Source of the DNA: Pseudobdellovibrionaceae bacterium
Lineage (GTDB): Bacteria > Bdellovibrionota > Bdellovibrionia > Bdellovibrionales > UBA1609
Direction: 5' to 3'
Assembly (NCBI GenBank): GCA_020635075.1
Contig: JACKAM010000002.1
Coordinates: 365,896 to 429,895, forward strand
DNA length: 64,000 nt
The notes below the pieces were generated by a model. The model was not told the origin of the DNA. It made no database searches and was given only the letters and a program-made list of their open reading frames with translations. Position 1 is the stretch's first letter; each line of letters begins with the position of its first letter. The position numbers and the translations under genes were made by a program. Shown in pieces: positions 1,215 through 17,587 of this stretch.

Positions 1215-1414
1215 CTCTTCGCCCTCTTTCCGGTTTGGAATTCAAACGTTTGTTTTAATTTACCGGAAAGCCCCCTCCCCCACAAGGACATTTTCAAACA
1301 AACGTTTGAAATTTCTCAAATGTATGTAATTACTGTATTTAATTGAATCTCAACCTGGATCGATCAGCTGCATCCAAAAAAGAACATCGGCACCCAGACT
1401 GCCAAATACATGGC

Positions 1415-2059: not shown

Positions 2060-3737
2060 TAGGCACTAATCCTATATGAATATGATGATAGTGACCTTTA
2101 ATCATCTTTGTCTTGAATTTGATCGGCTGATTTCCAACACCACTATCAGGAAATGGTGTGAGATCGCACTCAACATCCGGAGTCGAAAAGTCATCAACAC
2201 ACTTTCCTATCGGCACCAAAGCACCACCTAAGCTCTCAGCCAACATTTCTTTTTGTTCAATAGTCCCCGAAAGCATGATCCTCTGCTGCCATCGCTCTCT
2301 TGCGGGAGCCACAGGAGGAGGTAAATTGGGCTGTGGTGGCGGTTTTTTGGGGCCAGGAGAAAAATATATGAAGGCTCGCGGAAACCGCTGCGTTAGATCG
2401 GTCCATTTGTGTCGATTGTACACGGTCCAGCGACTTAGGCGTATTATTGCACGTAAATTCCTGGCGGCAATTCTGCGGTTTTTCTCTAGCTCCAAATTGT
2501 AGTCAGGCACACTTACCGACGTCACACTTTGGGCAATCAACTCAGGACATACTGAAGATGTGGCCAGACAGGCTTGACGGGCGGTCTCGCTAAGTCCCTC
2601 AAGGGCTAACAAGAATTCTTTGGAATGGTCCCAATCCTTGATTCTCCTAGTAGCGTTAGGATGATCATAATAATTCTCAAAACTGCCCTTAACCTCACAT
2701 GCTGATTGCTCGTCAGGAATCGAGGGTTGACTCACGACCACAGCCTGAAATTCAAACGGGATCTGATCTCCTGAACCTACCGCGAAGGCAGAGCAATCTT
2801 GATCCGAAAAATACCTAAGATCCATGTGCTCGCCATCCTTGTGAGACATATGGGTGGTGTTCAGTGCTTCCTCCTGATAATTTACAGAAAATCTTCCCCC
2901 AAAAGGCAGAGACCCATCGTTGCACAGTGTCCTCACTCCCATGACATTGGTGAGGTAATGAACCACTTCTGCCATTTCAGATGAAACATAGCTACTCATG
3001 GAAGTACTGTAATCTCTCGTACAGCCGCCTGCAACGTAATTATGGGGCTGATTATCCTTACGTCTCAAATTGAACGAGGTCTTAAAGGTTCTTTCTAGTG
3101 GCTCGCCCGATGTAACCTTGAGTCCAGTTTCCGTTTCTGTACCCACGAAGGTGTAAGCAAACTTTAGGTCGCTGATCTTTCTGGAGTTGTGATTGGCCCA
3201 ATTATACTTTTGCGAAATGGTCGTCATCATGCCTTCAATGTGATCCTCAATGCCTCCTGACGCCAAAAGCTCAGAATAAAGAACGTCCTTCTTTTTGGCA
3301 TTCCCGGTATTTGTCGCGTGGTCTTCCCTGAGTGGCAGATCAAATTCCAATAAATCGTGGCTTTCGTTGCCAACAAAAACCCGAACGCTGTCCCAGGTCA
3401 CCTTGTCTTCATTGTATTCCGCAGTAAACGAGTACCGGGGTACAAAGCGACCACCCCTGTTTTTGTAGGTATTGGAAGTTTCAGTGCTCTGAAATAACCC
3501 TGTTAAATCCAAATCAACAGGAAACAGCCCCTCTGTTTTGCTCAAGGACCGCTGAGCATCTCCGGTTGAAGAGTAGATCTGACTGGCTTGTTGGCTGCTG
3601 GGGACCGATGGCTGATCGGCGTCTCCGTTGGTTCCTTTGTTGATTGCCGTTAACTTGATGTAGTCAACCCTGGGAAAAGAGACGTAACAATGAGCCCGAT
3701 ACTCAGTTTCCCATTGTTGAGGAGCAGTTGGTATCAT
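2049..3737 (-). CDS. Orphan toxin-like protein: homolog of the C-terminal ~600 aa of the giant ORF, with a MepA/LAS-like metallopeptidase module; no signal peptide
   Basis: 562 aa. Its N-terminus QQWETEYRAHCYVSFP aligns with HYWEALPHRMSCHISWP of the 2001-aa protein, and LFPVDLD aligns with MFPVDVD. It carries CNDGSLPFGGRF...HMSHKDGEHMDLRY and a terminal GHYHHIHIG (H..D plus HxH zinc-ligand layout). Confidence 0.7.
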   Translation of the reverse strand: MIPTAPQQWETEYRAHCYVSFPRVDYIKLTAINKGTNGDADQPSVPSSQQASQIYSSTGDAQRSLSKTEGLFPVDLDLTGLFQSTETSNTYKNRGGRFVPRYSFTAEYNEDKVTWDSVRVFVGNESHDLLEFDLPLREDHATNTGNAKKKDVLYSELLASGGIEDHIEGMMTTISQKYNWANHNSRKISDLKFAYTFVGTETETGLKVTSGEPLERTFKTSFNLRRKDNQPHNYVAGGCTRDYSTSMSSYVSSEMAEVVHYLTNVMGVRTLCNDGSLPFGGRFSVNYQEEALNTTHMSHKDGEHMDLRYFSDQDCSAFAVGSGDQIPFEFQAVVVSQPSIPDEQSACEVKGSFENYYDHPNATRRIKDWDHSKEFLLALEGLSETARQACLATSSVCPELIAQSVTSVSVPDYNLELEKNRRIAARNLRAIIRLSRWTVYNRHKWTDLTQRFPRAFIYFSPGPKKPPPQPNLPPPVAPARERWQQRIMLSGTIEQKEMLAESLGGALVPIGKCVDDFSTPDVECDLTPFPDSGVGNQPIKFKTKMIKGHYHHIHIGLVPNAQ

Positions 3738-3773
3738 CTGAAGCTGTATCTTTCCGAAGGATTGATTTAAGTG

Positions 3774-3833
3774 GAGTGACCGTCACTTTTTGGTATTGCA
3801 GTACAATACTAAAAGTTGACGGTCACCTTACTA
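3774..3833. repeat. 60-bp dyad-symmetric repeat, copy A (57/60 identical to 6327-6386)
   Basis: GAGTGACCGTCACTTTTTGGTATTGCAGTACAATACTAAAAGTTGACGGTCACCTTACTA. It contains GTGACcGTCAC and tTGACgGTCAC sites flanking an inner GTATTG-cagta-CAATAC palindrome. It lies 36 bp upstream of the ATG of ORF 2049-3737. Confidence 0.9.
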
Positions 3834-4466
3834 CAAAACATCTCGCGAAGCTTTAGTGAGGATGAAGAGGGCGGTCAAAGCAGCAACCTCGGTCAGTCCG
3901 TGGACAACGAAGACTTGGGAGCTGCCCTCCGCTACCAACCCGAAACTGAGAAGGACTGGAGCCTGGGAACGGATGCCGGTATCAAACTGGTTTCACCCCC
4001 TGATCCCTTTTTGCGCTTTCGTATGCGCCGTACCTGGTGGCCAGGAAATTGGGAAATCCGCGCCACAGAAACCGTCTTTTGGTTTAAGTCCGAAGGCTAT
4101 GGTCATACGGAATCCCTAGAGTTTGACTATCCTCTCAGCCTTTCTTTTCTGTTTCGTTTTGCCAACCAGGCCTCCTGGCGCAAAAATGATCTGGAGTACC
4201 GCTTCGACAACACCCTTAATTTGTTTCAGAGAGTGAGCGACCGCTTGGCCATTGCCTACACCGCCGGGATGCACGGCCGCGATGTTCCGGCCGTCGCCGT
4301 TGATTCCTATTCCTTTGGCGTCAACTTCCGTCGCCGCATTCACAAAGACTGGTTGTTTTTCAACATCAAACCTGGCGGCTTCTGGCCCCGTGAAGAGAAC
4401 TTCACTTATGTCGCCTCCATCAGCTTCAAACTCGAAGTCATGATCGGTCAGGGCGAAACATGGTAG
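3816..4466 (+). CDS. Hypothetical; possible 5'-truncated beta-barrel outer membrane protein remnant
   Basis: 216-aa ORF whose TTG start lies inside repeat copy A. It has no signal peptide. It shows alternating-hydrophobic strands (YSFGVNFRRRI, FTYVASISFKLEVMI) and a C-terminal aromatic residue (…GETW-stop), as in OMP barrels. Confidence 0.3.
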   Translation: MTVTLLQNISRSFSEDEEGGQSSNLGQSVDNEDLGAALRYQPETEKDWSLGTDAGIKLVSPPDPFLRFRMRRTWWPGNWEIRATETVFWFKSEGYGHTESLEFDYPLSLSFLFRFANQASWRKNDLEYRFDNTLNLFQRVSDRLAIAYTAGMHGRDVPAVAVDSYSFGVNFRRRIHKDWLFFNIKPGGFWPREENFTYVASISFKLEVMIGQGETW

Positions 4467-4604
4467 GCTGCCAACTCCGCCCTCAATTCAGCACAAGTGT
4501 TTGAGTCATTCAAACACTGTTATTTTGCCGCAGCCGACAAGCCCATTAAGCCAGTCAGAAATTCTTTAGTATAATCCCAATCCAGAATTCGCCGATACAC
4601 GTGA

Positions 4605-5291
4605 TTACTCACTTTCGGAGGTTTCCCACACTTGAACCTCACACGAAGTGATCTTGTCAGGGTCCGATGGCATTCCCGTTTCAGATCGAGGTGCAAGGAT
4701 AGAGCCCGTCAAAAAGGTGCGGCCCTTGAACTTCATACTTGCCCCAGGTGAAATACACCCTACTTCGGGCCACCTCTGACCCGCCTTAACCTTGCCGTTA
4801 ATAAAAGAGACAAAGGAACCTCCCGGTATCCTCAAACCATTGATCTCCGAATCCTCACATAGCTTGAGCTCAAAAATCTCCAGCGTCTGTGCGTGCTGGC
4901 CCAGGTTGCCACATACTTTTATAGAGTTCACTTCTACAACCATCTTCTCTCCACCCAGGCGGAAAAGAGTACCTATTCCCGATACAAATGTTCCTCGCGG
5001 ATAGGTAATACCCCCTATCTTCACAGGCTTTTTTACCCATAATTTAACAACAAAGTCTGTAGGGGATGGCCCCTCATTAAACACCTGGCTTATGTACACA
5101 TTGTCCCAAACCATATCTTTAAAGATCGGCCACTTCGATAGCTTTTCCAAATCATCCTTTAGGACAACTGGAGGACTACTCTTCATTACCTTAGGGATAT
5201 CATCGTTCGAATCTGCAATAACGGAGACCGAGACAACAATCAAACAACTTAGAAAAGCACTTCTCCAAATCATGACAGATCTCCCCCTCAA
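4605..5291 (-). CDS. Secreted hypothetical protein; putative immunity protein for the orphan module 5298-6320
   Basis: 228 aa with an N-terminal signal/TM segment (MIWRSAFLSCLIVVSVSVIADS). It starts 6 nt after the toxin-like ORF. Paralog of 1415-2059. Confidence 0.55.
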   Translation of the reverse strand: MRGRSVMIWRSAFLSCLIVVSVSVIADSNDDIPKVMKSSPPVVLKDDLEKLSKWPIFKDMVWDNVYISQVFNEGPSPTDFVVKLWVKKPVKIGGITYPRGTFVSGIGTLFRLGGEKMVVEVNSIKVCGNLGQHAQTLEIFELKLCEDSEINGLRIPGGSFVSFINGKVKAGQRWPEVGCISPGASMKFKGRTFLTGSILAPRSETGMPSDPDKITSCEVQVWETSESE

Positions 5292-5297
5292 CCAATA

Positions 5298-6320
5298 TCA
5301 CTGATAAATTCCCAAATGTAGATGATCGATATGCCCTGACGCACCATCGTTTCTCAAATTCTTATTATCTCCAGGCTCTTGGTGTAAATCACACTGGGCA
5401 TCCTCATCGCACGATCCAATTCTCACTAAACCCGAACCATCTGCAGACAGACTCAACATGTCATGGTCATCCACTGTTCCATCTAAAAATAGCTTTTTCT
5501 GCCATTCGGGGCGGCTATCAGTTTCCTTAATAAATGAAATCATCACCTGAACTTTATCAAATCTCAGACTCAACGCTGTCCACGTTCGTCTGTTATACAC
5601 GACCCATCGACTCAGTCTTTTCATCGCTGCTAGATTCCTAACGGAAATCCTTCGGTTCTTCTCTAGCTCCAGATAGTAATTGGAAACACTAGCTGGCGTG
5701 ATTTTTTGGGCAATTAGCTCGGGACAAGTCGAGGAAGTTGTCAAGCAGGTTTGACGAGCAGTCTCGCTGAGTCCCATCATGTCTGCCAGGAACTCCTTTG
5801 TATGGTCCCAGTCCTTAATCCGCCTCGATGCTTTTGGGTGATCATAGTAGTCTTCAAAACTACCTTTAGTATCACACGCGGAATGCTCATCAGGGATCAC
5901 AGGCTGATTAACATTAATCGCTCCTTGAAACTTGAACGGAATCCGATCTCCCGGATCTACCAAAAAGGCAGAGCAATCTTGATCCGAAAAGTATCTAAGA
6001 TCTATATGTTTTCCTCCATCGTGGGTACCATGTCCCAACTGAGGGATATCCAGATTAACTCGAAACTGACCACCAAAAGGCAGAGACCCATCGTTGCACA
6101 GCGTCCTCACTCCCATCACATTGGTGAGGCAATGAACGACTTCCGCCATTTCAGATGACACGTAACTACTCATCGTACCACTGTAATCATCTATGCAGCC
6201 GTTCACAACGTAATTATGGGGCTGATTATCCTTACGTCTCAAATTGAACGAAGTCTTAAAAGTTCTTTCTAGTGGCTCGCCTGAAACAACCTTGAGTCCT
6301 GTGCCGGTTTCTGTACCCAC
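5298..6320 (-). CDS. 5'-truncated orphan copy of the toxin C-terminal (MepA/LAS-like) module
   Basis: 340 aa. Nucleotide-level homology to 2440-3143 runs up to position ~6323 and then breaks into repeat copy B. The start is a GTG that corresponds to an internal Val (FVGTETETG) of the 562-aa paralog. Putative catalytic motifs are retained (GHGTHDGGKHIDLRY ... GHIDHLHLG). Confidence 0.6.
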   Translation of the reverse strand: MGTETGTGLKVVSGEPLERTFKTSFNLRRKDNQPHNYVVNGCIDDYSGTMSSYVSSEMAEVVHCLTNVMGVRTLCNDGSLPFGGQFRVNLDIPQLGHGTHDGGKHIDLRYFSDQDCSAFLVDPGDRIPFKFQGAINVNQPVIPDEHSACDTKGSFEDYYDHPKASRRIKDWDHTKEFLADMMGLSETARQTCLTTSSTCPELIAQKITPASVSNYYLELEKNRRISVRNLAAMKRLSRWVVYNRRTWTALSLRFDKVQVMISFIKETDSRPEWQKKLFLDGTVDDHDMLSLSADGSGLVRIGSCDEDAQCDLHQEPGDNKNLRNDGASGHIDHLHLGIYQ

Positions 6321-6326
6321 GAGGTA

Positions 6327-6386
6327 GAGTGACCGTCACTTTTTGGTATTGCAGTACAATACTAAATAGTGACGGTCACCTTACTA
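6327..6386. repeat. 60-bp dyad-symmetric repeat, copy B
   Basis: GAGTGACCGTCACTTTTTGGTATTGCAGTACAATACTAAATAGTGACGGTCACCTTACTA. It has two perfect GTGAC-N-GTCAC sites whose centres are 40 bp apart. It directly abuts the truncation point of ORF 5298-6320. Confidence 0.9.
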
Positions 6387-6427
6387 AAAGTATGTCTGTA
6401 TCTGGATAATTGGGATACCCCGCTGAA

Positions 6428-7768
6428 CTACTTCGTACAGTTCCCGGGTGAAAAATCCTTGTGAATGATTTTACCATTCGAAATTAACCCAAGACTTCCC
6501 TTGGGAAGGACTGTCCCTAGGATTTTAGTATCCTGATCCACATGGATACAGCGGATAGGTGGGAATCCTTGACTGATCCGTTTTTCATGACGGCCAAAAT
6601 ACAAGGTCGCCCCCTTAGGTAATTTCAATCCGTTGATTTTGGCATCCTTCATCAGTTGCAAAGAGCGAGGGTTGCCGTTGTCCACATCAAAAACCGCTGT
6701 GCCGCCAAACTCCGCACCTCCATATTTGATCGACTCGGCCCCAAACAGCACCTGTTCTTTCCCATCCGGACCCGCAACAAAAATGAGAGAGCCTTTCGGC
6801 CGTTGGAGATCATAGAACCGAAAGTCCTTTTTGACCGAAACCACATATCGGATGTCTGGAAATGAGGATCCAAGCCTTATCTTCTTAAGGGAGGAAATTT
6901 GGCTGTAGGCCAGTACATAATCCTCTGGACTTAATTCCCTCAATCCCGGGGCTTTCCGCACGGAATCGAAGTTCTTTGTTTCTCCCGCCCGCCAAAGTAG
7001 CTTTCCATTTTCATCCAAACCCTCTTTATCCGAGCTTTTACCGGTGTGGTCGCAGTTAACACATGGCGCCTCCGTCGCCGGCGGCTCCACAATGTCGGGA
7101 GGGGTGTAAAGGCAGGTGTTCTCATTAAACTCCAGCTGAAGCTTTCCCGCATCATCTATATGAACCAGTCTTCTCTTCCACACATGAGTCCCCTGGATCG
7201 TCATATCCTCCTTCCCCTGAAGGCAAACAATTGGCGGAAACTCCGAGGTTAATGGGCCCCTATGGCGCCTAAAGTTGATTGATGTCAACTTAGGCAGCCT
7301 AACTCCATTAATGACTACATCTTTCAAGGTTCTGGCTTCTCGAGGATTTCCGGTATCGATATCCATTGAGCTTACTGCTATCTCTTTTCCTTTCCACAGG
7401 GCAGCGGATTCACCAGAAATACGCATTTCTGGTCCTCCCCACACTCCACCTAGTCCAGTTATCTTTGTGCCCTTCCTGCCATGTACCTCATAGATTCGGA
7501 AGTCCTTGTTAATGATGAGTTCAAACTGAATTTGAGGAACTGCGAAGCCACTTTCCGGATCAGCTTCAAGATAATCACTAATACTCAACTCATAGTCACC
7601 AGGCTTCAACTTGTCCAATCCCGGAATACCCATCAAATATTTGATACTCCGAAGCTGCCCTTCTGTCCATGGTGTCCCCTCTGAACCACCAGGCAAGGTA
7701 ACCAATCCTTCCTGACCCCAACCTGCTGCGCTCCAGGCAATACAGAGAAGAAATATCAACGTCTTCAC
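6428..7768 (-). CDS. Secreted two-domain hypothetical protein (internal duplication of the 7818-8600 domain); putative immunity/accessory protein
   Basis: 446 aa with signal peptide MKTLIFLLCIAWSAAGWG. The first half plus the linker TPPDIVEPPATEAPCVNCD aligns with the whole 260-aa neighbour. The second half repeats the domain (KKDFRFYDL..., GFPPIRCIH). Confidence 0.65.
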   Translation of the reverse strand: MKTLIFLLCIAWSAAGWGQEGLVTLPGGSEGTPWTEGQLRSIKYLMGIPGLDKLKPGDYELSISDYLEADPESGFAVPQIQFELIINKDFRIYEVHGRKGTKITGLGGVWGGPEMRISGESAALWKGKEIAVSSMDIDTGNPREARTLKDVVINGVRLPKLTSINFRRHRGPLTSEFPPIVCLQGKEDMTIQGTHVWKRRLVHIDDAGKLQLEFNENTCLYTPPDIVEPPATEAPCVNCDHTGKSSDKEGLDENGKLLWRAGETKNFDSVRKAPGLRELSPEDYVLAYSQISSLKKIRLGSSFPDIRYVVSVKKDFRFYDLQRPKGSLIFVAGPDGKEQVLFGAESIKYGGAEFGGTAVFDVDNGNPRSLQLMKDAKINGLKLPKGATLYFGRHEKRISQGFPPIRCIHVDQDTKILGTVLPKGSLGLISNGKIIHKDFSPGNCTK

Positions 7769-7817
7769 ATCAACTCCCCATCGGTCTCTTGTTGCGGGTG
7801 AAAGGTGACCTGCCTAT

Positions 7818-8600
7818 CTAGTTAGATGATCCCTTTGCTGCTCCTTCACCGGCCCCGTCGCAATTAAGGCAGGGAGCCTCAGTTGCCGGCGGATCAACAA
7901 TGTCCGGGGGAGTATGAGCACATGCAGTCGAGGTAAACTCGAGAAGGGGGGCACCTTTTTCATCAAAATTCACCACCTTGCCTGCTGGTATCGTCAATCC
8001 AGCAATTGTCAGCTCTTTCTCGGCCTGGATACATACAATCGGCGGGAATCCCGCTATTAGCCTTTCACGATGACGACGAAAGTAGACTTTCGTGGACTTT
8101 GGGAGAGTTAAGTCATTAACTCTAAGTTCTGAAACCAAGCTTATCGACCTTGGTAGACCCGTATCAATATCGAAGGTTCCCACCCAAATATCAATTCCTC
8201 GCCATTTTGCTGGCCCACCTGAAAAATGAACCTGTGGACCTCCCCACCCTCCTCCTAGGCCGGTAACTACCGTCCCCCTTTTCCCATGCAAATCGTAAAA
8301 TCGGAAGTCTTTATTAATCTTAAGCTCAAATTCAAACCGAGGTACGGCGAAACCGCTCTCAGGATCAGGATCCAAATACTCACTGATAACCAATTTATAA
8401 TCACCTTGTTTTAACTTATCAAATCCAGGCACTCCCATCAGATAATCGATACTTTTTCTTTGACCAGAAGTCCATGAGGTCTCCTTAGATCCTGAAGGAA
8501 GCGTCGCAAGTTGGCCCAAAGCTTCTAAGCCACTGAATGCAAGCACAACAAACAGTGCTCCAATTGTAACCACGTAGAGCCTCCTATCTTTCCATGGCAT
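7818..8600 (-). CDS. Secreted hypothetical protein; putative cognate immunity protein of the giant toxin-like ORF
   Basis: 260 aa with a signal peptide (LYVVTIGALFVVLAFSGLEALG). Its start overlaps the stop of the 2001-aa ORF by 17 nt, which suggests translational coupling. Confidence 0.65.
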   Translation of the reverse strand: MPWKDRRLYVVTIGALFVVLAFSGLEALGQLATLPSGSKETSWTSGQRKSIDYLMGVPGFDKLKQGDYKLVISEYLDPDPESGFAVPRFEFELKINKDFRFYDLHGKRGTVVTGLGGGWGGPQVHFSGGPAKWRGIDIWVGTFDIDTGLPRSISLVSELRVNDLTLPKSTKVYFRRHRERLIAGFPPIVCIQAEKELTIAGLTIPAGKVVNFDEKGAPLLEFTSTACAHTPPDIVDPPATEAPCLNCDGAGEGAAKGSSN

Positions 8601-11600
8601 GCAGGTGGAAATGCGTTAGATGAGTCGCTGTGGGATCAAACCACACGTTTGTTTCCGACAAATCACAAGATGTCGGATTAATCTGACAGGAGGTATATGA
8701 CTGTGGACCGACAGTAAACTTGCCTATTTTACAATTCAGATCCTCCGAACAAGTTCCAATCGCTTCCATCCTCCCATCAGTGGTCTTTTCGAGAAGAGGG
8801 AAATTGTCCACTTTGCCATCAAATAACAACTTCTCCTGCCATCTTTTGAAATACGAAGGATTGCCATTTGCATACACTCCCTGGGAGACTAGGACGGCGA
8901 GGGTCTTGTCCTGGAGTACGTAACTCGACAATATACTTCTTTGATTCATCGTCCAGTGTGCAAGCCTAAAATTTGCAGCTTTGCCATTGGCAAACGCCTC
9001 CTTATCTTCCGGACTAAAATTCTGAGGAGCAACACATGCAGAATAGCTGTCCTTGCATGTTAAAAGCAAAGTCGAATTACCCGATGCATTCACCCATTGG
9101 AGGAATCTCCTCGCCAGAGGAAGATCTACTAATCTTTCCTGCGCATCATTGGCATCATAATAATCAGGAAAGCCATTTGGATATGCTGATGTTTGCTGAC
9201 AACTGCTCTTCCTTGCAAGGTGAAGATCGGCATTATCACACGTTAAATCAACATGATAACGAAAGTCCAAATGTAGCCCATTTTTGTGGGAATCATGAGC
9301 CGGAATTTTCCCGCCAAAAGGTAATGAAGCATCATTACAATAGGCCGTATGAGGATCATAGAATTTCACAGCCCTGACTATATCAATTATCGGCCTCCGG
9401 GCAAATATGGACACATTGTTTCCATACTTCCGATCACAGACACCAGGAACAAAATTAAAGGCCTTGGCAGGAGATCTCTGATGACTGGCCTTTAGAATAA
9501 AAGGATTGAGGTTAAAACTGGCTTTAAACTGAGCTCGTTGAGCTGTTGGAGTGATCAGGATCTGGTCCGTCAGAGGATCATAGACCTCCACGAAAAAATT
9601 GATTGCGAACTTGTCAGGTTGGTTCAAGGGCGCCCAGTTCAAATGCTCGGTGAGGTTTTTGACATCGACCTCAATCCGGACTTTCGTCTCGCTCCTCTTT
9701 GTTTGGCTGGGAATTTCCTCCAAGATCCTGAAATAGTACCGACGTTGAGTCGAGGTCGAAAAACCAACGAGGCCACCCACTCCGGAGACCCTAAAGCGTT
9801 GGTTGTCTCCGACAGACAGCGTGACAGTGTATTCGGGCCTCCAAGTTCCGCCGTGGTTCTCATAAAGGTTGTAGTGGGTCGATTCATCCACATCCACTGG
9901 AAACATTCCGGTTGCATAGGCGAGACTTCGCTTTGAATCCTCCACTGGTGTGTACACTGGAGTGGGAGGTGTCGTGGTGGCGGCCATTATCGTGTTTTGC
10001 GCCGATGCAGTGACGACAACCGGAGTTGTTTCCCCAATTCCATCTTCGACAGATTTGATTTCTGGATAGGGTCCGGTAGGCCAAGAGATATGGCAGCTCA
10101 TTCGGTGTGGCAATGCCTCCCAATAATGGAACCAGTCCGTCGAAAGGCTTACATATGGCCTAGGATCAAAGTTATCATTTGGATCCAAATCTACAAGATG
10201 AAGATCTTTCGGAATTTTCACTCGCCAAGTCCAGTTGAGACCCCAATCAATCACATTTTGACCTGCCTCCCCAGCTGGAGGGAACTTCACATAATCTGCC
10301 ATTTCTTCGTCACTTGAAATCCCTAGGCGGGCCCTGACATTGGCGGCACTATCATAAATGGTCTTAGTAATGGTTTCCCGCTTCACCGGATCCCAGAAAT
10401 TGACCCTGATAGGGAATACTCTGGCATCGTTACCTCTGATGGTATTGATATCCACATTTCTCCAGTACCATTGTTTGGCGTGGGTTGCGGGATCATAGTT
10501 GGGAGGGCGACACCAAAGAGCCTTACTACGCTCATACCACTGCAAGTAGGGAATATAGCCAGATAAGGATTGAAAATTACAGTTGACGATGACTTCTTCA
10601 GCAAAAGGCGGAATCTTTTTGGCATCCGTGTAACTTGGCTTAGTTGGGTCTGTCGAGACGTAGTGGTCATGATTCAAGTATGGATTACTGTGGGGCCCCA
10701 CTTGGTGAATGATACCATCGCCAGGATAAACTCGGCTTTGACAAATGTCCGTCATATTGGTGTTCATGTATTCTGGCCCAGTGATAGACTGTATGGGGAA
10801 ATCAACCGTCGGCGGAATATCGAAACCTTGGACAAGCCCCACGTTAGCCGATTTGACGGCAGTTGACCCTCGGACAACCTCTAGGACCTGATCAAAGGAG
10901 CTTGGTCGATATTCCGGCAGGGAGAACGAAAAGCTCGGCTGCCTTGAATCCAGTGCCGCAAACGAAGTTTCCTGAGCCCCGACCTTCTGCGCCAGTTGAC
11001 TCACCTCGTTACCTGGTTGATTGAAATCAATAAAGGCATAGGTACCAGGCTCTAAGTCCGCCAACTTCTCCATAGGGCCGGTCGATGGCGACGTGGTTTC
11101 AACCAGGTACTTTCCTGCTGGTAGATCCTCAAAAGAAACATTTCCAGAGACCTCGTGGCGACTCCGAACAATGGAAGTACCAAGGGCGCGAACCAGAACC
11201 TCCCGGGCATCGGGGGGTAAACCAACCGTGATTCCAGAACTTCCAACATAGTGTGGTTCTGTGGCGCCAACTACGGGAGTTCCATCAACGGCATTAGACC
11301 CATGGATTTCAAACCAATAGGTATCGGTCAAATTATCAAGTTTTGAAAGAAATTGTTGGGTATCGACAACAATCTCAGTGCCATCAATTTCAATAATATC
11401 GGTCAAATCAAGCGGAATCGGTTTTCCCATTGGCGACCAGTGAACAAATAAAATTGGCTCTTGGCTTGATGAGGGCTCAGGAAAACTCAGAGCCACTCCG
11501 TGATTGTTTCGCAGCCTGAAAGTTGGCTTTGAAGTGGGAATCACATTACCTATCGAATCCCCAACGCGGAAACAGGTTGAATGATGTGCCATAAATGAAC

Positions 11601-14589
11601 AGTCGACATCGTTGACGGCAACCACGACGGCCAAAGAAGCCGTGTCTGACTTTCCAGATGGACTGGTCATAGTAAGATCTACTTGGAACACTCCCTCGGT
11701 CTCAAAGACATGTTGACCATTTCTCAGCATACTGCTGGTTCCATCCCCAAAATCCCAGTGGGCCTGAGTGCCGTCGTCATACATCACTGAGTCATCTGAT
11801 GAAAACTCGATGATTGCCGGAATTGAATCGATATTAAGAACCTGCCCTTTGGCGAATTCTGGTCGCGGGTACTTTTTGGAGTCAATGATCGTGGGGTTTG
11901 ATACTGGAAAGGGTTCTGGTAAGACATCAACGACTTTTTCAGCCAGATACACTGCCCCTGATGAATCAGTCACCTCTAGTCTTACCGTCTTGGACCCTGG
12001 CACAGAAAAAATATGAGACGAAATTTCTCCTAAACCAGATCCACCGTCCCCGAAACTCCATTGATATGCCAGTGGCAGGCCTGTCGGGTTGTAAGTCGGA
12101 ACTGCTGAAAAGGTTGTGGTCAGTCCTGTGTACACAGCTTGAGGTGATGAAATGAAGTTAGGGACGATATCACCACCAGGCGGGTTGGGGTCCAAGACTG
12201 TGACTACTAAAAATGAGCTTGCGGTTTTCCCGTGATTGTCCGTGACCGTAAGCACAATCGAATGTGCCCCGGGTTGGTCAAATGTATCGACGTAATAGGG
12301 ACCAGTCCATACATGGCCATTTGAGTTGTCCCATCTATACTCAATTATTTCTCCATCGGGATCGTAGGAATTATAGGCGTCGACTTCGACTCGCAAAGGG
12401 GCTGTCCCCGTCGTAGGAGTTAGAGCCACAATTTCTGCAACGGGAGGCTGATTATCTAGTGGTGGTGGCGCACTGAGAACGCGGATCTCGGCTGTGTGGG
12501 TCGCGTAATTTCCTGCTTGGTCAATAACTGTGAGGCTAGGAAAATACTGGCCAGGCTCTTGGTAGGTGTGGCTTTCATAGGGGCCACTGATTGATTTCTG
12601 TCCGTCTCCCCAGCTCCAAATCCAAGTTGTCACCTGATCGTCGCTGTCCCAGGTGTAACTGCCATTAAAACTGACTTCTACCGGAGCTTGGCCTACAAGC
12701 GGTGTGGCAATAAAAAGTGGCAGAGGTGGTGTCCCCGAATAGACATTGATTTCAGTTTCAAGCCGAGTGGTGAGATTTTCTGGATTTGTGAGTGAAAGAG
12801 TGATTTTGTAAAGGCCACTTTTCGCGTAAGTATGGCTTATGCTGTGAAGGTCTGATCCAATGCCTGTTAAAACTGTACCGTCTCCCAGATCCCATTTTAG
12901 ATTAAAATCGGCAATTTGATTAAGATCAAAGGTATCAAGCCAGATTTGAATCTCTTCATTGACCGATGGCGAGTAATTGTCGAGGGCAATCGCTACGGGT
13001 AGATCGGCTGATGTGTGCTGGACATTGACGGTCTTTTTCGTCAAATACCTTTGACCCAAGACATCAAAGGCTGAGAGCTGAACTTCGTAGGGACCGGGGC
13101 CTGGGTAGGTGTGGCTTTGGTTTCGGCCTCTGGCGTAACTGTTGTCTCCGTAAAACCAGTGGAAATTGTGATACTCAATCGGAGCTGTTGTAAGGCCAAC
13201 TGAGTTATCAAACCACAACTCTAGAGGATCTGAAGGGTTGGCTTGAGCCAAAAAATCTACTTTTGCAGGGTCACCTGAAAGAACGTGGACCGTAAAGTGC
13301 TCAACTGAGGACTTTCCTTGAGCGTCCCTGACGGTGAGTCTTCCGTAATAAGATCCTGGGTAGTTAAAGGTGTGGCTTGTCATTGCCCCTTGAGTGAAAT
13401 CAATCGGATCATGGTCATCCCCAAAGGTCCATTCGACTTGGGAGATCGAATCACCTGAGTCGATGTCAAATGACTGAGAGGCGTCGAGTTGAACTGTAAA
13501 TGGACTTTGCCCCAACAACCCCGATGAAATCAAAACAGGTGTGGGAGGTACATTGGCATCAGTCTCGCCCACGACGATCTGAGTTGTCACTTCCCGCCGG
13601 GCCAAGAACTGATCTCGAAGCCTGAGCCTGACAGTGTAGGTTCCAGGCTGTGAATAGGTATGGCTCACAACTGCTTGATCAGTACCAATCACTTCAGGTG
13701 AATTATCCCCAAACCGCCAACGATAACGGATTTCATCGTTTTCTGGGTCAAAGCTCTCTGAGGCATCAAATGTCACGGTCAAGGGGGCTGGGCCACTGGC
13801 TTGATTAACCGAAATATGAGGCACTGGGGGCTGATTGGGCACAATTTCAATTTGTCTTGAAGTCGAAGTTGAAAGCCCTGAGTCGTCAGTAATGGTGAGA
13901 GTGACCTGATAAACTCCGGTGTTTTGATAATAGTGCTCCACACTGGCATATAGGTCCGTTTCATGAGGGTAGAGAGTCAGGATTTTACCTATGCCAAAAT
14001 CCCAGGTGTAGCTCACTATCTGACCCCCATCCTGGTCTTCAGCTGGCATCAAAGTGAAAAACAACGCCTTGGTCGGCACGTGATCCGTTGTCGTAACAAA
14101 AAAGATTCCGCCTCCATCAGTAGGAGGCTTTGGTTTTGGCAGCACAGTATACTCAATGGGAACCGAGGTCTGAGCGCCATCGTCGTCAGTTGCGGTTACT
14201 GTCACCACATAAACCCCTGCCACTTGCCACGAGTGCTCGGCTACAAAGCCAGTACTTGAGGTATTGTCCCCCCAGTCAAAATGCACCTCGGTTACCAAAC
14301 CATCTGGATCGGTTGAGGCCATGGCATCAAAGAGCACCACTTCATCTTCAAGGGGCTGATCGGTACTCCAGGTCAAATTCAAAATAGGTGGCTGATTGGA
14401 GTCTTCACCGTAAATGCTCACTTTAACGAAGGAACCGGGAAAGCCTTTAAGCTTTAAAGACAGTGTTGATGTGTCTTCAGTGAGGTCAATCGGTATTCGA
14501 ACTTCCTGGGTGCCGATGTTGAGGCTACCCGGAGTTAGGATCAAATTTTGATTGAGCCACACATGACCGGCATGAACGCGAGTAAACAA
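8584..14589 (-). CDS. Giant PKD-repeat exoprotein with a C-terminal MepA/LAS-like metallopeptidase module (body of a gene frameshifted at 14704-14712)
   Basis: 2001-aa ORF. It has about ten PKD-type repeats (for example APLTVTFDASESFDPENDEIRYRWRFGDNSPE..HTYSQPGTYTVRLRLRD) spanning roughly nt 11700-14340. The C-terminal ~290 aa (nt 8587-9459) read CNDASLPFGGKIPAHDSHKNGLHLDFRY ... THFHLHAMER. The annotated TTG start is probably an internal Leu codon. Confidence 0.85.
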   Translation of the reverse strand: MFTRVHAGHVWLNQNLILTPGSLNIGTQEVRIPIDLTEDTSTLSLKLKGFPGSFVKVSIYGEDSNQPPILNLTWSTDQPLEDEVVLFDAMASTDPDGLVTEVHFDWGDNTSSTGFVAEHSWQVAGVYVVTVTATDDDGAQTSVPIEYTVLPKPKPPTDGGGIFFVTTTDHVPTKALFFTLMPAEDQDGGQIVSYTWDFGIGKILTLYPHETDLYASVEHYYQNTGVYQVTLTITDDSGLSTSTSRQIEIVPNQPPVPHISVNQASGPAPLTVTFDASESFDPENDEIRYRWRFGDNSPEVIGTDQAVVSHTYSQPGTYTVRLRLRDQFLARREVTTQIVVGETDANVPPTPVLISSGLLGQSPFTVQLDASQSFDIDSGDSISQVEWTFGDDHDPIDFTQGAMTSHTFNYPGSYYGRLTVRDAQGKSSVEHFTVHVLSGDPAKVDFLAQANPSDPLELWFDNSVGLTTAPIEYHNFHWFYGDNSYARGRNQSHTYPGPGPYEVQLSAFDVLGQRYLTKKTVNVQHTSADLPVAIALDNYSPSVNEEIQIWLDTFDLNQIADFNLKWDLGDGTVLTGIGSDLHSISHTYAKSGLYKITLSLTNPENLTTRLETEINVYSGTPPLPLFIATPLVGQAPVEVSFNGSYTWDSDDQVTTWIWSWGDGQKSISGPYESHTYQEPGQYFPSLTVIDQAGNYATHTAEIRVLSAPPPLDNQPPVAEIVALTPTTGTAPLRVEVDAYNSYDPDGEIIEYRWDNSNGHVWTGPYYVDTFDQPGAHSIVLTVTDNHGKTASSFLVVTVLDPNPPGGDIVPNFISSPQAVYTGLTTTFSAVPTYNPTGLPLAYQWSFGDGGSGLGEISSHIFSVPGSKTVRLEVTDSSGAVYLAEKVVDVLPEPFPVSNPTIIDSKKYPRPEFAKGQVLNIDSIPAIIEFSSDDSVMYDDGTQAHWDFGDGTSSMLRNGQHVFETEGVFQVDLTMTSPSGKSDTASLAVVVAVNDVDCSFMAHHSTCFRVGDSIGNVIPTSKPTFRLRNNHGVALSFPEPSSSQEPILFVHWSPMGKPIPLDLTDIIEIDGTEIVVDTQQFLSKLDNLTDTYWFEIHGSNAVDGTPVVGATEPHYVGSSGITVGLPPDAREVLVRALGTSIVRSRHEVSGNVSFEDLPAGKYLVETTSPSTGPMEKLADLEPGTYAFIDFNQPGNEVSQLAQKVGAQETSFAALDSRQPSFSFSLPEYRPSSFDQVLEVVRGSTAVKSANVGLVQGFDIPPTVDFPIQSITGPEYMNTNMTDICQSRVYPGDGIIHQVGPHSNPYLNHDHYVSTDPTKPSYTDAKKIPPFAEEVIVNCNFQSLSGYIPYLQWYERSKALWCRPPNYDPATHAKQWYWRNVDINTIRGNDARVFPIRVNFWDPVKRETITKTIYDSAANVRARLGISSDEEMADYVKFPPAGEAGQNVIDWGLNWTWRVKIPKDLHLVDLDPNDNFDPRPYVSLSTDWFHYWEALPHRMSCHISWPTGPYPEIKSVEDGIGETTPVVVTASAQNTIMAATTTPPTPVYTPVEDSKRSLAYATGMFPVDVDESTHYNLYENHGGTWRPEYTVTLSVGDNQRFRVSGVGGLVGFSTSTQRRYYFRILEEIPSQTKRSETKVRIEVDVKNLTEHLNWAPLNQPDKFAINFFVEVYDPLTDQILITPTAQRAQFKASFNLNPFILKASHQRSPAKAFNFVPGVCDRKYGNNVSIFARRPIIDIVRAVKFYDPHTAYCNDASLPFGGKIPAHDSHKNGLHLDFRYHVDLTCDNADLHLARKSSCQQTSAYPNGFPDYYDANDAQERLVDLPLARRFLQWVNASGNSTLLLTCKDSYSACVAPQNFSPEDKEAFANGKAANFRLAHWTMNQRSILSSYVLQDKTLAVLVSQGVYANGNPSYFKRWQEKLLFDGKVDNFPLLEKTTDGRMEAIGTCSEDLNCKIGKFTVGPQSYTSCQINPTSCDLSETNVWFDPTATHLTHFHLHAMER

Positions 14590-14686
14590 AGTCTTAAAGG
14601 CTGCAAGGCCATGTTTGATCCGGCAAACAAACGAAACAAAGCTTCGCTCTTTTGGACAAACTCCTAAATCAACAGGAAGACCGTTT

Positions 14687-15004
14687 TCAATAACAAGGAG
14701 ATACCCCCCCCCTAGCTAGATCAAGACTTTGCGTTTGAACGTGAGGCTTAAAGATGCGGCCATGGAAAGTCTCGGGGCCCCAGACGAGATCGAGTTCTTC
14801 AGATGAATTTTGATTGTTCGAATCACTTGGTGGTTGAACGACCGACGGACCATGCTTAAACCAGTGGCCCATCTTGGCGTAGGAAACTTCCGGGGCAAGG
14901 AACCCAAAAGCCAAGAGCACAAAAAAGGCTCTGAAGGTAATTGAAGTAACAACAAACCACCAACTACTGCTACGACCGCAAGCTCTCTCAACTCCAAACG
15001 CCAT
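14687..15004 (-). CDS. Signal-peptide-bearing N-terminal fragment of the giant exoprotein gene, separated from it by a frameshift
   Basis: The 105-aa ORF begins MAFGVERACGRSSSWWFVVTSITFRAFFVLLAFGFLAPEVSYA-K. It ends 5 codons after the G9 tract. Removing one G fuses it in frame to ORF 8584-14589. Confidence 0.7.
   Translation of the reverse strand: MAFGVERACGRSSSWWFVVTSITFRAFFVLLAFGFLAPEVSYAKMGHWFKHGPSVVQPPSDSNNQNSSEELDLVWGPETFHGRIFKPHVQTQSLDLARGGVSPCY
14704..14712 (-). repeat. Homopolymer: C9 on the plus strand, G9 on the coding strand, at the frame junction
   Basis: Counted directly: ataCCCCCCCCCtagc. Both reading frames overlap only at this tract. Confidence 0.95.
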
Positions 15005-15334: not shown

Positions 15335-15652
15335 CTAGGTCGCGAGGGTAAGCTTATAGATCGAGGCCCCTAGATGATCGGCAAGATCTAAGAGCTTGAG
15401 GTCTTCGATTCCTTCAATTCTCAATATCGCCTGACATTCGCGCAGAGAACCAAGGGCAATAGAGTAAAACCGCCTTTTGTCCTTTGGACTTGGCTTGCCA
15501 CTCCCCTCGGCAAGATTCAGCGCCACGGATGAAGACGCCCGGAGCATCTGATCCCGCAAATGAATCGGCAGCTTCAACAGCTTCACTTGCTGACAAAATT
15601 CCACTGCCAAATCTAAGGTCCTAAATCTGTATTCGTGTTTTTTCTGTGTCAT
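15335..15652 (-). CDS. Four-helix-bundle protein (23S rRNA intervening-sequence protein / Avd-like family)
   Basis: 105 aa. The motifs ...SSVALNLAEGSGKPSPKDKRRFYSIALGSLRECQAIL... match the family signature (NIAEG...s.kd...f..iA.GS..E) as I remember it. Confidence 0.75.
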   Translation of the reverse strand: MTQKKHEYRFRTLDLAVEFCQQVKLLKLPIHLRDQMLRASSSVALNLAEGSGKPSPKDKRRFYSIALGSLRECQAILRIEGIEDLKLLDLADHLGASIYKLTLAT

Positions 15653-15714
15653 TTTAACTTCCTTTGTAAAGTGTGTTGGCCATCACCCCAAGGTGGGCCA
15701 ACCACTGCCACAAA

Positions 15715-15940
15715 GGAAAACGGATCACGGTACGGATACGGGAACTGTCGCCGAAACGCTAACAGGTTACGGTTTACTGGTTACGGAAAAAGGGGACCAA
15801 CGAACGCAACAAAGGAGGAATTTCCGTTTGCGTAACCCGTTACCCGGAACCAGTAAACGTGACAGTGACAGTGACAGTTACGGATACCGAAACCGTCACG
15901 ACAACGTTTACGGGTTACCGATCACGGATTACGGTTCTTG
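15715..15940. repeat. Array of short ACGG/CCGT-centred repeats (GTTACGG, ATCACGG, CCGTAAC), plus (GTGACA)x3 at 15859-15876
   Basis: Examples: cggatcACGGtACGGatACGG, ggttACGGtttactggttACGG, CGTAACCCGTTACCCGG, tttACGGgttACCGatcACGGattACGG. It lies in the divergent intergenic region between the 4HB and HNH genes. Confidence 0.8.
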
Positions 15941-16195
15941 GTTAACGAGAAAAAATTCCGTTCGTTTCAAAAATATTTTAAACACTACTATTGACGCCTT
16001 TTTCGTCGTCGTTAAACGCCCAATATTCGCTTTAACTCGCAAATTTGGTTTTCCTCTCTCGCTCTCACTAAAAACCTACCAACGCCTTTCCTGGTGCGCC
16101 TCCCAGGCGACTTGATCTACGTTAGGCAGCTCGCCAAACTAGGCGCTATAAAACCCATGCTATACATCCATTACTCGTTTCGAGGGGGATTTAAC

Positions 16196-17587
16196 ATGAA
16201 TGATCACATGAATTTCGAAGACCATCTGCCAGTCAAGATCCGCAACATTCACCAGCAAGCCCTGCAGGCCTCGGCCAGATATAAAACGGCTGAAATTGAC
16301 CTCATCAACATATTAGACCAAGTAGAGCAAAACCGGGTTTACCTTCGCTATGGTTACAACTCTCTTTTTCAATATGGGGTCCAATGCCTGGGGCTCTCGG
16401 ACGGCGTGGTCTATGCTCTGATTGCTGTGACCCGCAAATCTCGCGAGGTTCCGGAACTGAAGGAAGAAATCAAAGAGGGTAGACTTACGGTTTCAAAGGC
16501 CAAACGAATTACTTCGGTGATCAACAATGAAAACAAAACCCAATGGCTTGAGTTAGCCAAAACCTCAACTCAATCCAAAGTGGAGCGGGAAGTGGCAAAG
16601 GCAAACCCTCAAGAGGCTCGCAAGGGGAAGATGACCTATGTCCACCCGCAAAATGAGATTCAGGAGAAGGTGGCCATCCAGCAACAACCGACAGCTGTTC
16701 GGGTGCAACTTCAAGTGGGGATCTCGGAAAGACTGATGATTAAGATTCGCCGGGCTCAGGACCTCATGAGTCAGAAGGCCCAAAAGCCAGCCAACTTGGA
16801 AGCAACATTGGAATCCATAGTCGACTTGTTTTTGGCAAAGCATGATCCGCTGAAGAAAGCGGAACGGCAAATGATTCGCGGAAAGCTCTCCCGTGAGAAT
16901 CAGTCTACATCTGCTCCAATCCCCGATAACCAAGGATCGCCTGAAATATCAGTGACAGAAGCAAAACCTGAACTCTCCTTGAGGAGAGCTGGCGAAGTGG
17001 CTGCGTCAAAGGAAACTCCTGACAGGGAAATCTATCGAGATGGTAAACCTACCACTAAAAAACCGGCTCACCTAACTGTCGATCAGCTGAACAATGACTC
17101 CCCTTTGTCCGATAGTCGGTCCGATTGCCGAGCCATTTCCGGAAATCCGAATCCTCGCCGTCGCGCTGGGCGTATCCGAACTGCGGCGGCAAAGCTGACG
17201 CAGTCCGAAGACGCGCCTGCGGCCGATAAGGCGTGTGAGGATTTGCGGAGAATGGTCGGCAATGGACTGAATCACCTGATAAAGGTTTCTGCGAATCAAC
17301 AATTAGGTGGGCCAGTTAATACAAATAGAACTAAAACGACGGGGAGAAAGCGAAAACCACTTCCAGCCGCCACTAAACACCGGGTGATGCTGAAATTTGC
17401 CGGCCAATGTAGTCATGAAAACCACCAGGGAGAAAGATGTCGGGAGACTAAGTTTCTGGAGATCCATCATCTGAAACCCATTGCTCTTGGCGGAGGTGAC
17501 CACCTTGAAAATCTGACCCTGCTTTGCTCGGGACATCATCGCGCCCAACATCTTTCTGGCACATCGACCCTATCCTTACCCGGCTAG
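16196..17587 (+). CDS. HNH endonuclease with a DUF222-like N-terminal domain and a long low-complexity insert
   Basis: The C-terminus reads CSHENHQGERCRETKFLEIHHLKPIALGGGDHLENLTLLCSGHHRAQH (HNH). The N-terminus (ARYKTAEIDLINILDQVEQNRVYLRYGYNSLFQYGV...GRLTVSKAKRI) resembles DUF222-HNH proteins. I prefer the ATG at 16196, preceded by GAGGGGGA, over the track start at 16094. Confidence 0.8.
   Translation: MNDHMNFEDHLPVKIRNIHQQALQASARYKTAEIDLINILDQVEQNRVYLRYGYNSLFQYGVQCLGLSDGVVYALIAVTRKSREVPELKEEIKEGRLTVSKAKRITSVINNENKTQWLELAKTSTQSKVEREVAKANPQEARKGKMTYVHPQNEIQEKVAIQQQPTAVRVQLQVGISERLMIKIRRAQDLMSQKAQKPANLEATLESIVDLFLAKHDPLKKAERQMIRGKLSRENQSTSAPIPDNQGSPEISVTEAKPELSLRRAGEVAASKETPDREIYRDGKPTTKKPAHLTVDQLNNDSPLSDSRSDCRAISGNPNPRRRAGRIRTAAAKLTQSEDAPAADKACEDLRRMVGNGLNHLIKVSANQQLGGPVNTNRTKTTGRKRKPLPAATKHRVMLKFAGQCSHENHQGERCRETKFLEIHHLKPIALGGGDHLENLTLLCSGHHRAQHLSGTSTLSLPG

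Follow-up and report, generated by a model that had tools for sequence, protein, structure and literature searches.

Polymorphic toxins are secreted multidomain proteins with a downstream immunity gene, orphan modules composed of a C-terminal domain plus immunity gene, and swapped C-termini or N-termini (PMC4436062). In a predatory setting, Bd3459 and Bd0816 act as DD-endopeptidases, and the gene downstream encodes a signal-peptide protein, Bd3460, which protects the producer itself by blocking the enzyme in its periplasm; Bd3459 is of ordinary size and belongs to the PBP4-type serine enzymes, and Bd3460 is built of ankyrin repeats (PMC4686830). The LAS metallopeptidases, in turn, are characterized by the motifs H-x(3-6)-D…H and H-x-H, the first His of H-x-H being catalytic (PMC4087270). 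Here, we analyze a locus from a Pseudobdellovibrionaceae bacterium (assembly GCA_020635075.1, contig JACKAM010000002.1, positions 365,896 to 429,895; this whole stretch of 64,000 nucleotides is referred to as the window) in which a giant PKD-repeat protein with an exchangeable C-terminal module (CT) is followed by genes for signal-peptide proteins. We consider it probable, though far from certain, that this is a polymorphic effector-immunity locus of the Bdellovibrionales, the tip of the effector being a very divergent LAS-type zinc peptidase whose closest relative would be Escherichia coli MepA.

Gene structure, mosaic alleles and cassettes

The main open reading frame (ORF) encodes 2001 residues, as a preliminary description of the stretch had stated, and the residue numbers given below for its regions and motifs refer to it. 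The roughly ten PKD repeats counted there correspond to 10 stretches each of PKD_4 (E 4.8e-126) and PKD (E 8.7e-81) in Pfam, spread over residues ~56-985 (Table 1); the last ~1000 residues of the ORF gave zero Pfam matches, and NCBIfam yielded partial PKD-related matches on the toxin and nothing else. The middle region, which the same description found unassignable, has no Pfam match above threshold (a weak SdrD_B/carboxypeptidase-regulatory-like stretch was seen, SdrD_B E 0.077) and zero sequence relatives in the PDB; it is common to all full-length relatives, contains conserved Cys residues, and may, by pure inference, be a pre-toxin, a translocation part, or a part for entry into the target periplasm. 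The C-terminal strings quoted in that description are likewise present, with CNDASLPFGGKIPAHDSHKNGLHLDFRY beginning at residue 1751 and THFHLHAMER preceding the stop codon, the CT ending in …THLTHFHLHAMER. Its claim that the next two genes encode signal-peptide proteins, the first overlapping the toxin stop by 17 nt, also holds. The points it missed were the start of the gene with its frameshift, two further copies of the CT, and a mosaic between strains.

The true start of the toxin gene is the ATG at 15004, in a 105-aa ORF that lies in a different frame from the main ORF and encodes a Sec-type signal peptide. A tract of nine G residues accounts for the shift: when one G is removed, an uninterrupted 2139-aa protein without a stop results, and the orthologue P0002 (contig L002, GCA_020435105.1), which carries A+G8 at the matching site as opposed to A+G9 in the window, reads continuously across the tract (…LELARGGYLLVIENG…). 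This is the sole G/C run of at least 8 in the 64 kb. Another contig from a metagenome-assembled genome (MAG), JAGRAH010000132.1 (GCA_020434765.1), is 100% identical to window positions 3843-9173 and begins a few bases within the G tract, as judged from a 2037-aa gene call that reaches the contig end. The frameshift may be either a sequencing error in the homopolymer or a phase-variable switch that slipped-strand mispairing has set to 'off'; since a long G tract occurs in both strains with a difference of ±1, phase variation is a reasonable inference.

Relatives of the C-terminal half are few. An exhaustive HMMER search with residues 991-2001 against 1.84 billion representative proteins returned only 5 clusters, every one of them a full-length PKD protein with this CT or a stand-alone CT module: P0001 (full-length type with CT), P0002 (the full-length orthologue), P0003 (a stand-alone CT), P0004 (identical to one of the orphan modules described below), and P0005 (a divergent protein of 1866 aa with signal peptide, PKD repeats, middle region, and CT). 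A genome scan added two distant members from Bdellovibrio MAGs, namely the 1121-aa protein of L006, which has the middle region and the CT behind a signal peptide, beta-helix-like repeats, and two PKD domains, and a 291-aa stand-alone CT in L007. A scan of metagenome contigs contributed one locus, L008, with match statistics equal to those of L006, and word-indexed homologue searches with the CT or the eight-module alignment recovered zero relatives. A housekeeping protein of the window falls into a 90% identity cluster with a protein named 'Bdellovibrionales bacterium', which places the host in this predatory order. The CT family is thus very rare and so far confined to the Bdellovibrionales.

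In L006, the CT gene lies among at least five paralogous signal-peptide proteins with beta-helix-like repeats (positions 3079-7201 and 11353-13877). These paralogues share the N-terminal motif …HPNGGGFVA-TA-V…, and one of them has, by eye, an RCC1-like repeat region; this scaffold family may carry other tips.

Comparison of the window protein (repaired at the G tract) with P0002 reveals a mosaic. Identity is 59-92% over the first 300 residues and 96-100% from residue 300 to 850, and the first eight PKD repeats or so are in this 96-100% range; past residue ~900 it drops sharply and stays at 20-40% as far as the C-terminus. Such a drop suggests a recombination breakpoint within the PKD array and the exchange between strains of a block of ~1200 residues that comprises two PKD repeats together with the middle region and the CT. 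The window strain thus carries a 'type A' half in the expressed position, and downstream of it the 3' ends of two alleles of 'type B' have been kept. The same CT family occurs in L006 on a different N-terminal scaffold, one of beta-helix-like repeats and two PKD domains.

The two 'type B' ends are the orphan cassettes of Table 1, whose CTs share 26-29% identity with the main module and 75% DNA identity with each other. Orphan 1 retains all invariant motif residues (see below) and is identical to the public protein P0004. Orphan 2 combines the CT with the final part of the middle region, and window positions 3779-3327 within it match the C-terminal end of P0002 at 96.7% identity. An identical promoter-like site (TTGAGA-18-CATAAT, 10/12) is present within both orphan modules, at 6213-6242 and 3039-3068 (minus strand), and lies ~40 nt upstream of an internal ATG (MSSYVSS…) that the public annotation takes as the start of P0004. 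With promoter and terminator consensus scans of the region giving counts at chance level, this site is only a hint that the orphan CTs may be expressed on their own.

A near-perfect palindrome, GGTGACCGTCACTTTTTRGTATTG-TACTG-CAATACYAAAAAGTGACGGTCAC, is found in two copies in the 64 kb (0 expected by chance) and again at positions 1822-1886 and 2115-2178 of locus L005. Copy 2 in the window sits exactly at the point (3779) from which orphan 2 is homologous to the other strain's full-length allele, and one palindrome copy is the site of a MAG contig break. Predicted DNA hairpins have energies between -18.5 and -27.5 kcal/mol (z between -6.5 and -11), and the role of the element may be that of a terminator or that of a recombination site. 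An integron-like array was considered on account of these palindromes, and neither an integrase nor a RAYT-type gene was seen.

Taken by itself, the frameshift would also suit a housekeeping or decaying envelope protein. The giant PKD protein would then be a structural protein of the cell surface or periplasm, with a domain for remodeling the producer's own sacculus; the downstream proteins would be regulators, the extra copies decaying duplications, and the frameshift the sign of a pseudogene. The orphans have no obvious start signals of their own, one toxin-module fragment is only 43 aa long, and MepA itself does housekeeping work in the periplasm of the cell that makes it. Nonetheless, we regard such a protein as very unlikely, given that the orthologue is in frame with its G8, that the orphans still have open reading frames of 340 and 562 codons in which no motif residue has been lost, that the drop from 100% to ~25% identity between strains is the mark of allele replacement and not of drift, and that the family is patchy, with 5 clusters among 1.84 billion representatives.

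In 9/9 CT-bearing cassettes, the CT is followed directly by a gene for a signal-peptide protein, and all these proteins belong to one divergent superfamily; the start codon of this gene often overlaps the stop of the CT. Three immunity-type domains follow the main gene. An N-terminal signal peptide is present in 11/11 downstream proteins (A1, A2, B1, and B2 of the window, two each from L003 and L004, the latter with extended starts, and one each from L005, L006, and L007). As the partners are exported, the activity to be blocked would be extracytoplasmic. The superfamily is held together by blastp links between A1 and the two halves of A2 (55% and 34% identity), between A2 and B1 (E 4e-7), and between L004_i2 and L007_i (E 2e-7), with marginal links of L006_i and L007_i to B1 (E 0.002); it has no informative relative in Pfam, NCBIfam, PADLOC, or the PDB. 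Residues 81-128 of B1 match Pfam Transposon_TraM over 45 residues (28.3 bits against a gathering threshold of 25.1, E 3e-6), and the match recurs more faintly in A2; the match was judged uninformative, being probably due to a shared small beta-rich element and not to a conjugation function. Similarity matrices of toxins and partners are correlated, with a Spearman coefficient of 0.67 (p about 0.002 by permutation); divergence is faster among the partners, and this co-variation fits cognate immunity. Conserved Cys residues occur in both toxin and immunity proteins and suggest disulfides. Cassette order varies among the relatives: L003 has the full gene, an immunity gene, an 80-aa toxin fragment, and a second immunity gene, and in L005 a CT and its immunity gene are followed by the beginning of a further cassette.

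A conserved stalk, a variable tip, a co-varying downstream gene, and spare cassettes are also the layout of tail fibers and their chaperones. The locus could accordingly encode a surface fiber with a variable receptor-binding tip, tip-specific periplasmic chaperones downstream, and spare cassettes for host-range switching, and the host order is predatory, a lifestyle in which prey recognition matters. Tail-fiber assembly proteins do act as chaperones, and the histidines of the CT would hold a structural metal, in the way that H-x-H motifs do in some phage tail-fiber tips. Protection is the better fit, however, to three immunity-type domains behind one gene and to the immunity gene kept behind a toxin fragment in L003; together with the catalytic-site-like residue pattern of the CT discussed below, this makes a receptor-binding tip unlikely. 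The polymorphic-toxin-style reading of the preliminary description is instead borne out by a signal peptide and repeats that predict secretion, an exchangeable CT present also on another scaffold, a strain with a swapped C-terminal half, orphan modules with downstream genes, and partners that co-vary.

The C-terminal module and its likeness to MepA

The preliminary description had further assigned the tip of the protein to the LAS metallopeptidases, with MepA as the best match. When eight modules were aligned (21-30% identity to the main one), ~20 residues proved invariant, among them six His/Asp residues in two blocks that follow the same order as the zinc-site residues of MepA. Block 1 is preceded by C1751-N-D…LP-x-GG and its proposed equivalents are MepA H110/H113/D120; those proposed for block 2 are H206/H209/H211. 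Also invariant are C1751-N-D, L-P-x-G-G, D1775-x2-Y, W1879, S1902, W1917, and C1975. The first LAS motif is present in 8/8 modules as H1768-x6-D1775…H1995 and the second, again in 8/8, as H1993-F-H1995.

Profile comparisons are in keeping with this likeness. The MepA sequence (from NC_000913) and a profile of 20 members (Enterobacterales, ≥72% identity, hence narrow and of limited sensitivity) were aligned with the module by hhalign, giving E 0.0022 for the single sequence and 0.0017 for the profile (probability 13-15%), with CND-SLPFGG-F…H-x-H-x2-G-x3-D of the module placed on MepA 91-121. The full-length alignment scored 30.9, whereas 200 decoys made by shuffling the MepA columns averaged 14.0 (sd 2.7) and reached 25.2 at most. 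When the N-terminal halves were aligned separately, 80 collinear columns (N-G-C … Y … helix … motif) were obtained at E 2.1e-4 (probability 46%), and the C-terminal halves placed H-x2-H-x-H on MepA H206/H209/H211 at E 0.038. With a hidden Markov model of MepA (hmmsearch), the best domain of 8/8 modules fell on model positions ~90-123. In a permissive Pfam scan of the eight modules, Peptidase_M74 was the sole peptidase family (E 0.016, 15.3 bits, one module), so that of the peptidase families named in the preliminary description M74 gave a weak match and M15 and M23 gave none; apart from Exo_endo_phos (E 0.013, one module), the scan contained no nuclease, lipase, or other enzyme. In NCBIfam, the MepA equivalog (NF006947) was the sole model matched by more than one member (2/8, E 0.16, 11.4 bits).

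Structure prediction, the other check the preliminary description had called for, did not recover a LAS match. The AlphaFold model of the main module, built from a six-row alignment, was poor (pLDDT, the per-residue confidence measure, 53), and its Foldseek matches carry no meaning. That of orphan 1 was better (pLDDT 72; predicted template modeling score 0.78), although most of its confident part is a long insertion of helices, and pLDDT is below 50 in the motif loops. The orphan 1 model runs helix, strand (with the Asp), helical insertion, strand, helix, and strands (with H-x-H); the Asp (H-I-D-L-R) and H-L-H-L lie in beta-strands, block 2 in the last one. This order is compatible with a LAS core, in which a central antiparallel sheet brings the three ligands together, without being a demonstration of one. 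The LAS assignment of the preliminary description is thus supported in part: the invariant motifs and the sole weak LAS-type match, to MepA, speak for it, and against it stand scores below the family thresholds and searches of the PDB and by Foldseek that provided no LAS match.

Two alternatives bear on these data. The largely helical bundle in the well-modeled part of the CT, together with the lack of a fold match to any enzyme, would be in line with the receptor-binding tip raised above, against which ~20 invariant residues at 21-30% identity and the mapping of His/Asp residues onto MepA speak as a catalytic-site-like pattern, with MepA as the sole recurring weak library match. Another metal-dependent enzyme, such as a His-rich nuclease, a phospholipase, or an amidase acting on another envelope component, could form the tip of a polymorphic toxin and resemble MepA by convergence, and we see this as a real but minor possibility. 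The M74 similarity is sub-threshold and confined to short blocks, Foldseek returned no structural match, and the terminal H-x-D-H-x-H-x-G of orphan 1 is superficially like the ends of the H-N-H motifs of colicin DNases. A nuclease is, however, at odds with the signal peptides of the 11/11 downstream proteins, which imply an extracytoplasmic target, and with conserved Cys residues that hint at disulfides; moreover, the two blocks are collinear with MepA along with the upstream N-G-C…Y…helix segment, and other enzyme families were absent at permissive thresholds save for the single Exo_endo_phos match. On balance, the tip probably belongs to the LAS enzymes as a very divergent representative; M74 is the family it comes nearest to, but it should not be classed as a member of M74.

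Several results weigh against the proposed effector-immunity locus with a LAS-type tip, and its main weakness is the enzyme assignment, which draws on motifs and sub-threshold profile similarity. Every profile score was below its family threshold (for M74, 15.3 against 25 bits for Pfam PF03411 and 11.4 against 272 bits in NCBIfam) and hhalign probabilities were 13-46%, with the Pfam family matching only 1/8 modules and the NCBIfam model 2/8. Searches of PDB sequences by phmmer and hmmsearch with the module or the alignments retrieved neither MepA nor any LAS protein, the matches (Nab2, methylthioribose-1-P isomerase, L24e) being at chance level, and Foldseek gave nothing at E < 0.9 in the PDB or BFVD for either AlphaFold model, in both of which the motif regions are low-confidence parts. 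Full-length hhalign aligned block 1 only, and a low mact setting did not bring H-x2-H-x-H into register, which was achieved only when the halves were aligned separately. The spacing from the Asp to the His cluster is ~215 residues (D1775 to H1990) versus ~86 in MepA; a ~130-aa, mostly helical insertion between the blocks departs from the compact M74 layout (a domain of ~240 aa). At the level of the locus, the orphans lack DNA homology to the resident main CT, which suggests relics of successive displacement more than a ready recombination reservoir, and all alternative CTs come from one family, as opposed to the unrelated folds of classical polymorphic toxins. Linkage alone could partly explain the co-variation of toxin and immunity proteins, no secretion or translocation component for the toxin was identified in the window at the Pfam level, and the frameshifted gene in the window may leave the toxin inactive.

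Under the mechanism we favor, the toxin would be exported by Sec and then displayed on the surface or released by some route, and the PKD stalk and middle region would carry the CT to its target, either a prey cell or a competing predator, where the tip would enter the periplasm. The CT, with its large helical insertion between the zinc-binding motifs, would then cleave the peptide cross-links of peptidoglycan in a zinc-dependent manner, leading to rounding or lysis. In the producer, the downstream proteins would be exported to the periplasm to bind and block their cognate module, retained orphan immunity genes would protect against the alleles of relatives, and expression may be subject to on/off switching by way of the G tract.

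Surroundings of the locus

According to an ORF scan of the 64 kb, the toxin locus has Opp, DnaE, LexA, DapF, PurT, and shikimate-pathway genes as neighbors. Pfam detected no domain of two-partner secretion (TPS), Rhs, haemagglutinin, PAAR, VgrG, type I, VI, or VII secretion systems (T1SS, T6SS, T7SS), or any other secretion system in the toxin or in the ORFs scanned across the window, in agreement with the earlier statement that Rhs/YD, haemagglutinin/CdiA, and T6SS/T7SS markers are missing. Rfam and tRNA scans of the window gave zero matches, as did PHROGs and PADLOC searches.

Upstream of the toxin gene, three ORFs (15335-17587) may be mobile-element debris. One is a fragment of a 23S-rRNA-intervening-sequence/Avd-family protein; a diversity-generating retroelement, suggested by this fragment, was rejected on the grounds that a reverse transcriptase was not found nearby. 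Between the two orphan cassettes lies a 216-aa ORF, also called as a gene in the MAG annotation, whose start codon falls within the palindrome and which has zero Pfam matches; its alternating hydrophobic residues and C-terminal aromatic residue, as seen by eye, suggest an outer-membrane beta-barrel. Downstream of the last immunity gene, a stretch of ~1.4 kb (window 1-1400) contains no ORF longer than 113 aa and no Rfam or tRNA match, and an 18-nt inverted repeat is located there.

Table 1. Coordinates of the toxin locus and adjacent features in the window
Feature	Position	Strand	Details
Toxin gene, 5' part	14705-15004	-	start codon, Sec-type signal peptide (…FLAPEVSYA/K), first ~100 codons; separate 105-aa ORF 14687-15004
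G9 homopolymer	14704-14712	-	C9 on + strand; site of +1 frameshift
Main ORF of the toxin gene	8584-14589	-	2001 aa
N-terminal region and ten PKD repeats	11620-14589	-	conserved 'stalk'; residues 1-990
Middle region	9553-11619	-	~690 aa, unassignable fold; homologous in P0001, P0002, P0005, L006 protein
C-terminal module, 'type A'	8587-9552	-	~320 aa, residues ~1680-2001; alignments, Pfam, NCBIfam, hhalign
Motif block 1	9265-9297	-	H1765-x2-H1768-x2-G1771-x3-D1775; invariant 8/8; proposed first zinc ligands
Motif block 2	8605-8622	-	H1990-x2-H1993-x-H1995; invariant 8/8; six residues from C-terminus; proposed LAS H-x-H
Putative immunity A1	7818-8600	-	260 aa, signal peptide; start overlaps toxin stop (8584-8600)
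Putative immunity A2	6428-7768	-	446 aa, signal peptide; tandem duplication of A1-type domain
Palindrome, copy 1	6324-6389	.	~61 nt; border of A2 and orphan cassette 1; DNA fold -19.3 kcal/mol, z -7.0
Orphan CT module 1, 'type B'	5298-6332	-	ORF 5298-6320, 340 aa, GTG start; tblastn with P0001 covers 6332-5301
Putative immunity B1	4605-5291	-	228 aa, signal peptide; 6 nt past orphan 1 stop
Toxin-module remnant	4478-4606	-	43 aa with 70% identity to residues 169-211 of P0003; tblastn, and blastn with L005
216-aa ORF	3816-4466	+	between the orphan cassettes
Palindrome, copy 2	3771-3836	.	~61 nt; DNA fold -18.5 kcal/mol, z -6.5
Orphan cassette 2, 'type B'	2049-3779	-	ORF 2049-3737, 562 aa, plus 42 nt upstream
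Putative immunity B2	1415-2059	-	214 aa, signal peptide; start overlaps orphan 2 stop by 11 nt
18-nt inverted repeat	1241-1310		downstream of last immunity gene
23S-rRNA-intervening-sequence/Avd-family fragment	15335-15652	-	four-helix protein; profile positions 29-78 of 106; just upstream of toxin gene
140-aa ORF	15693-16115	+	family unassigned; upstream of toxin gene
497-aa protein	16094-17587	+	C-terminal HNH nuclease motif; upstream of toxin gene

Comparison with described systems

Literature searches on polymorphic toxins and self-protection pairs in Bdellovibrio and on PKD-type polymorphic toxins returned no account of a system of this sort. Were the CT an active wall-cutting enzyme with periplasmic inhibitors, the locus would be, within the literature searched, the first polymorphic toxin-immunity system in the predatory Bdellovibrionales. 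The Sec-exported PKD stalk would then add a new type of carrier to the delivery scaffolds, the CT a new and highly divergent LAS/M74 branch, and the downstream proteins a new immunity fold; the single known case of predator self-protection (Bd3459/Bd3460) would be extended to an allelic, cassette-exchanging system, and kin discrimination or prey-range variation among predators would become directly testable. As neither the toxin nor the immunity family is annotated, standard pipelines miss such a locus. More tentatively, and with considerable doubt, we suggest that it could represent an unrecognized class of Sec-dependent polymorphic weapon, in which a PKD fiber, an entry region, a LAS-like tip, and a periplasmic immunity family would be combined with poly-G switching and cassette replacement at palindromes, possible recombination sites as opposed to terminators, and would serve kin competition or the breaching of prey walls without type V, VI, or VII secretion (T5/T6/T7).

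Compared with E. coli MepA (a penicillin-insensitive murein DD/LD-endopeptidase; MEROPS M74, PF03411), the CT shares D-x3-P-x-G-G-[RK]-[FI]…H-x-S-H-x2-G-x3-D and H-x2-H-x-H in the same order, a collinear upstream N-G-C…Y…helix, several conserved Cys residues, and, by prediction, an extracytoplasmic site of action, whereas it differs in being fused to a 1700-aa carrier, in being polymorphic, and in being paired with an inhibitor-like gene. The likeness to Bd3459/Bd3460 lies in the predator context, in the proposed cutting of cross-links, and in the presumed protection by the product of the next gene; the proteins are unrelated, with no Pfam domain of penicillin-binding protein, beta-lactamase, or ankyrin type in the toxin or the downstream proteins, and the parallel is one of functional analogy only. 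Here, a putative zinc enzyme of LAS type would sit on a giant PKD carrier as part of a polymorphic pair with orphan cassettes. By analogy, the locus may also be set beside the LAS-type bacteriolysins lysostaphin and zoocin A and the T6SS pairs Tae/Tai, Tge/Tgi, and VgrG3/TsaB, in which peptidoglycan hydrolases acting in the periplasm are matched by periplasmic immunity; in each case an antibacterial enzyme targets peptidoglycan, as the CT would. A sequence relationship to these was not detected, and there are no T6SS genes in the window. Immunity of the lysostaphin type is a modification of the cell wall and does not involve a binding protein.

The closest resemblance in organization is to CdiA-CT/CdiI, Rhs-CT/RhsI, MafB/MafI, and WapA/WapI (PMC4436062), which likewise have a large secreted multidomain protein with internal repeats, a conserved N-terminal part, and an exchangeable C-terminus, an immunity-type gene next to it, and displaced cassettes. 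WapA and MafB likewise use an ordinary signal peptide and not a type V or VI signal. In contrast to contact-dependent inhibition (CDI), Rhs, MafB, and LXG toxins, the protein described here contains no TPS, haemagglutinin, RHS/YD, PAAR, VgrG, DUF1020, or LXG element and has PKD repeats instead. Relative to classical polymorphic toxins, exchange involves a unit of great length (~1200 aa), the alternative CTs belong to one family (26-30% identity) and are not unrelated folds, the putative immunity proteins are exported, a 61-nt palindrome lies at the cassette borders, and the host belongs to the Bdellovibrionales. Polymorphic toxin-immunity loci with orphan cassettes are already known as a kind, and what is new is the PKD carrier without a known trafficking domain, the toxin and immunity families, the long exchanged block, the palindromic borders, and the host order.

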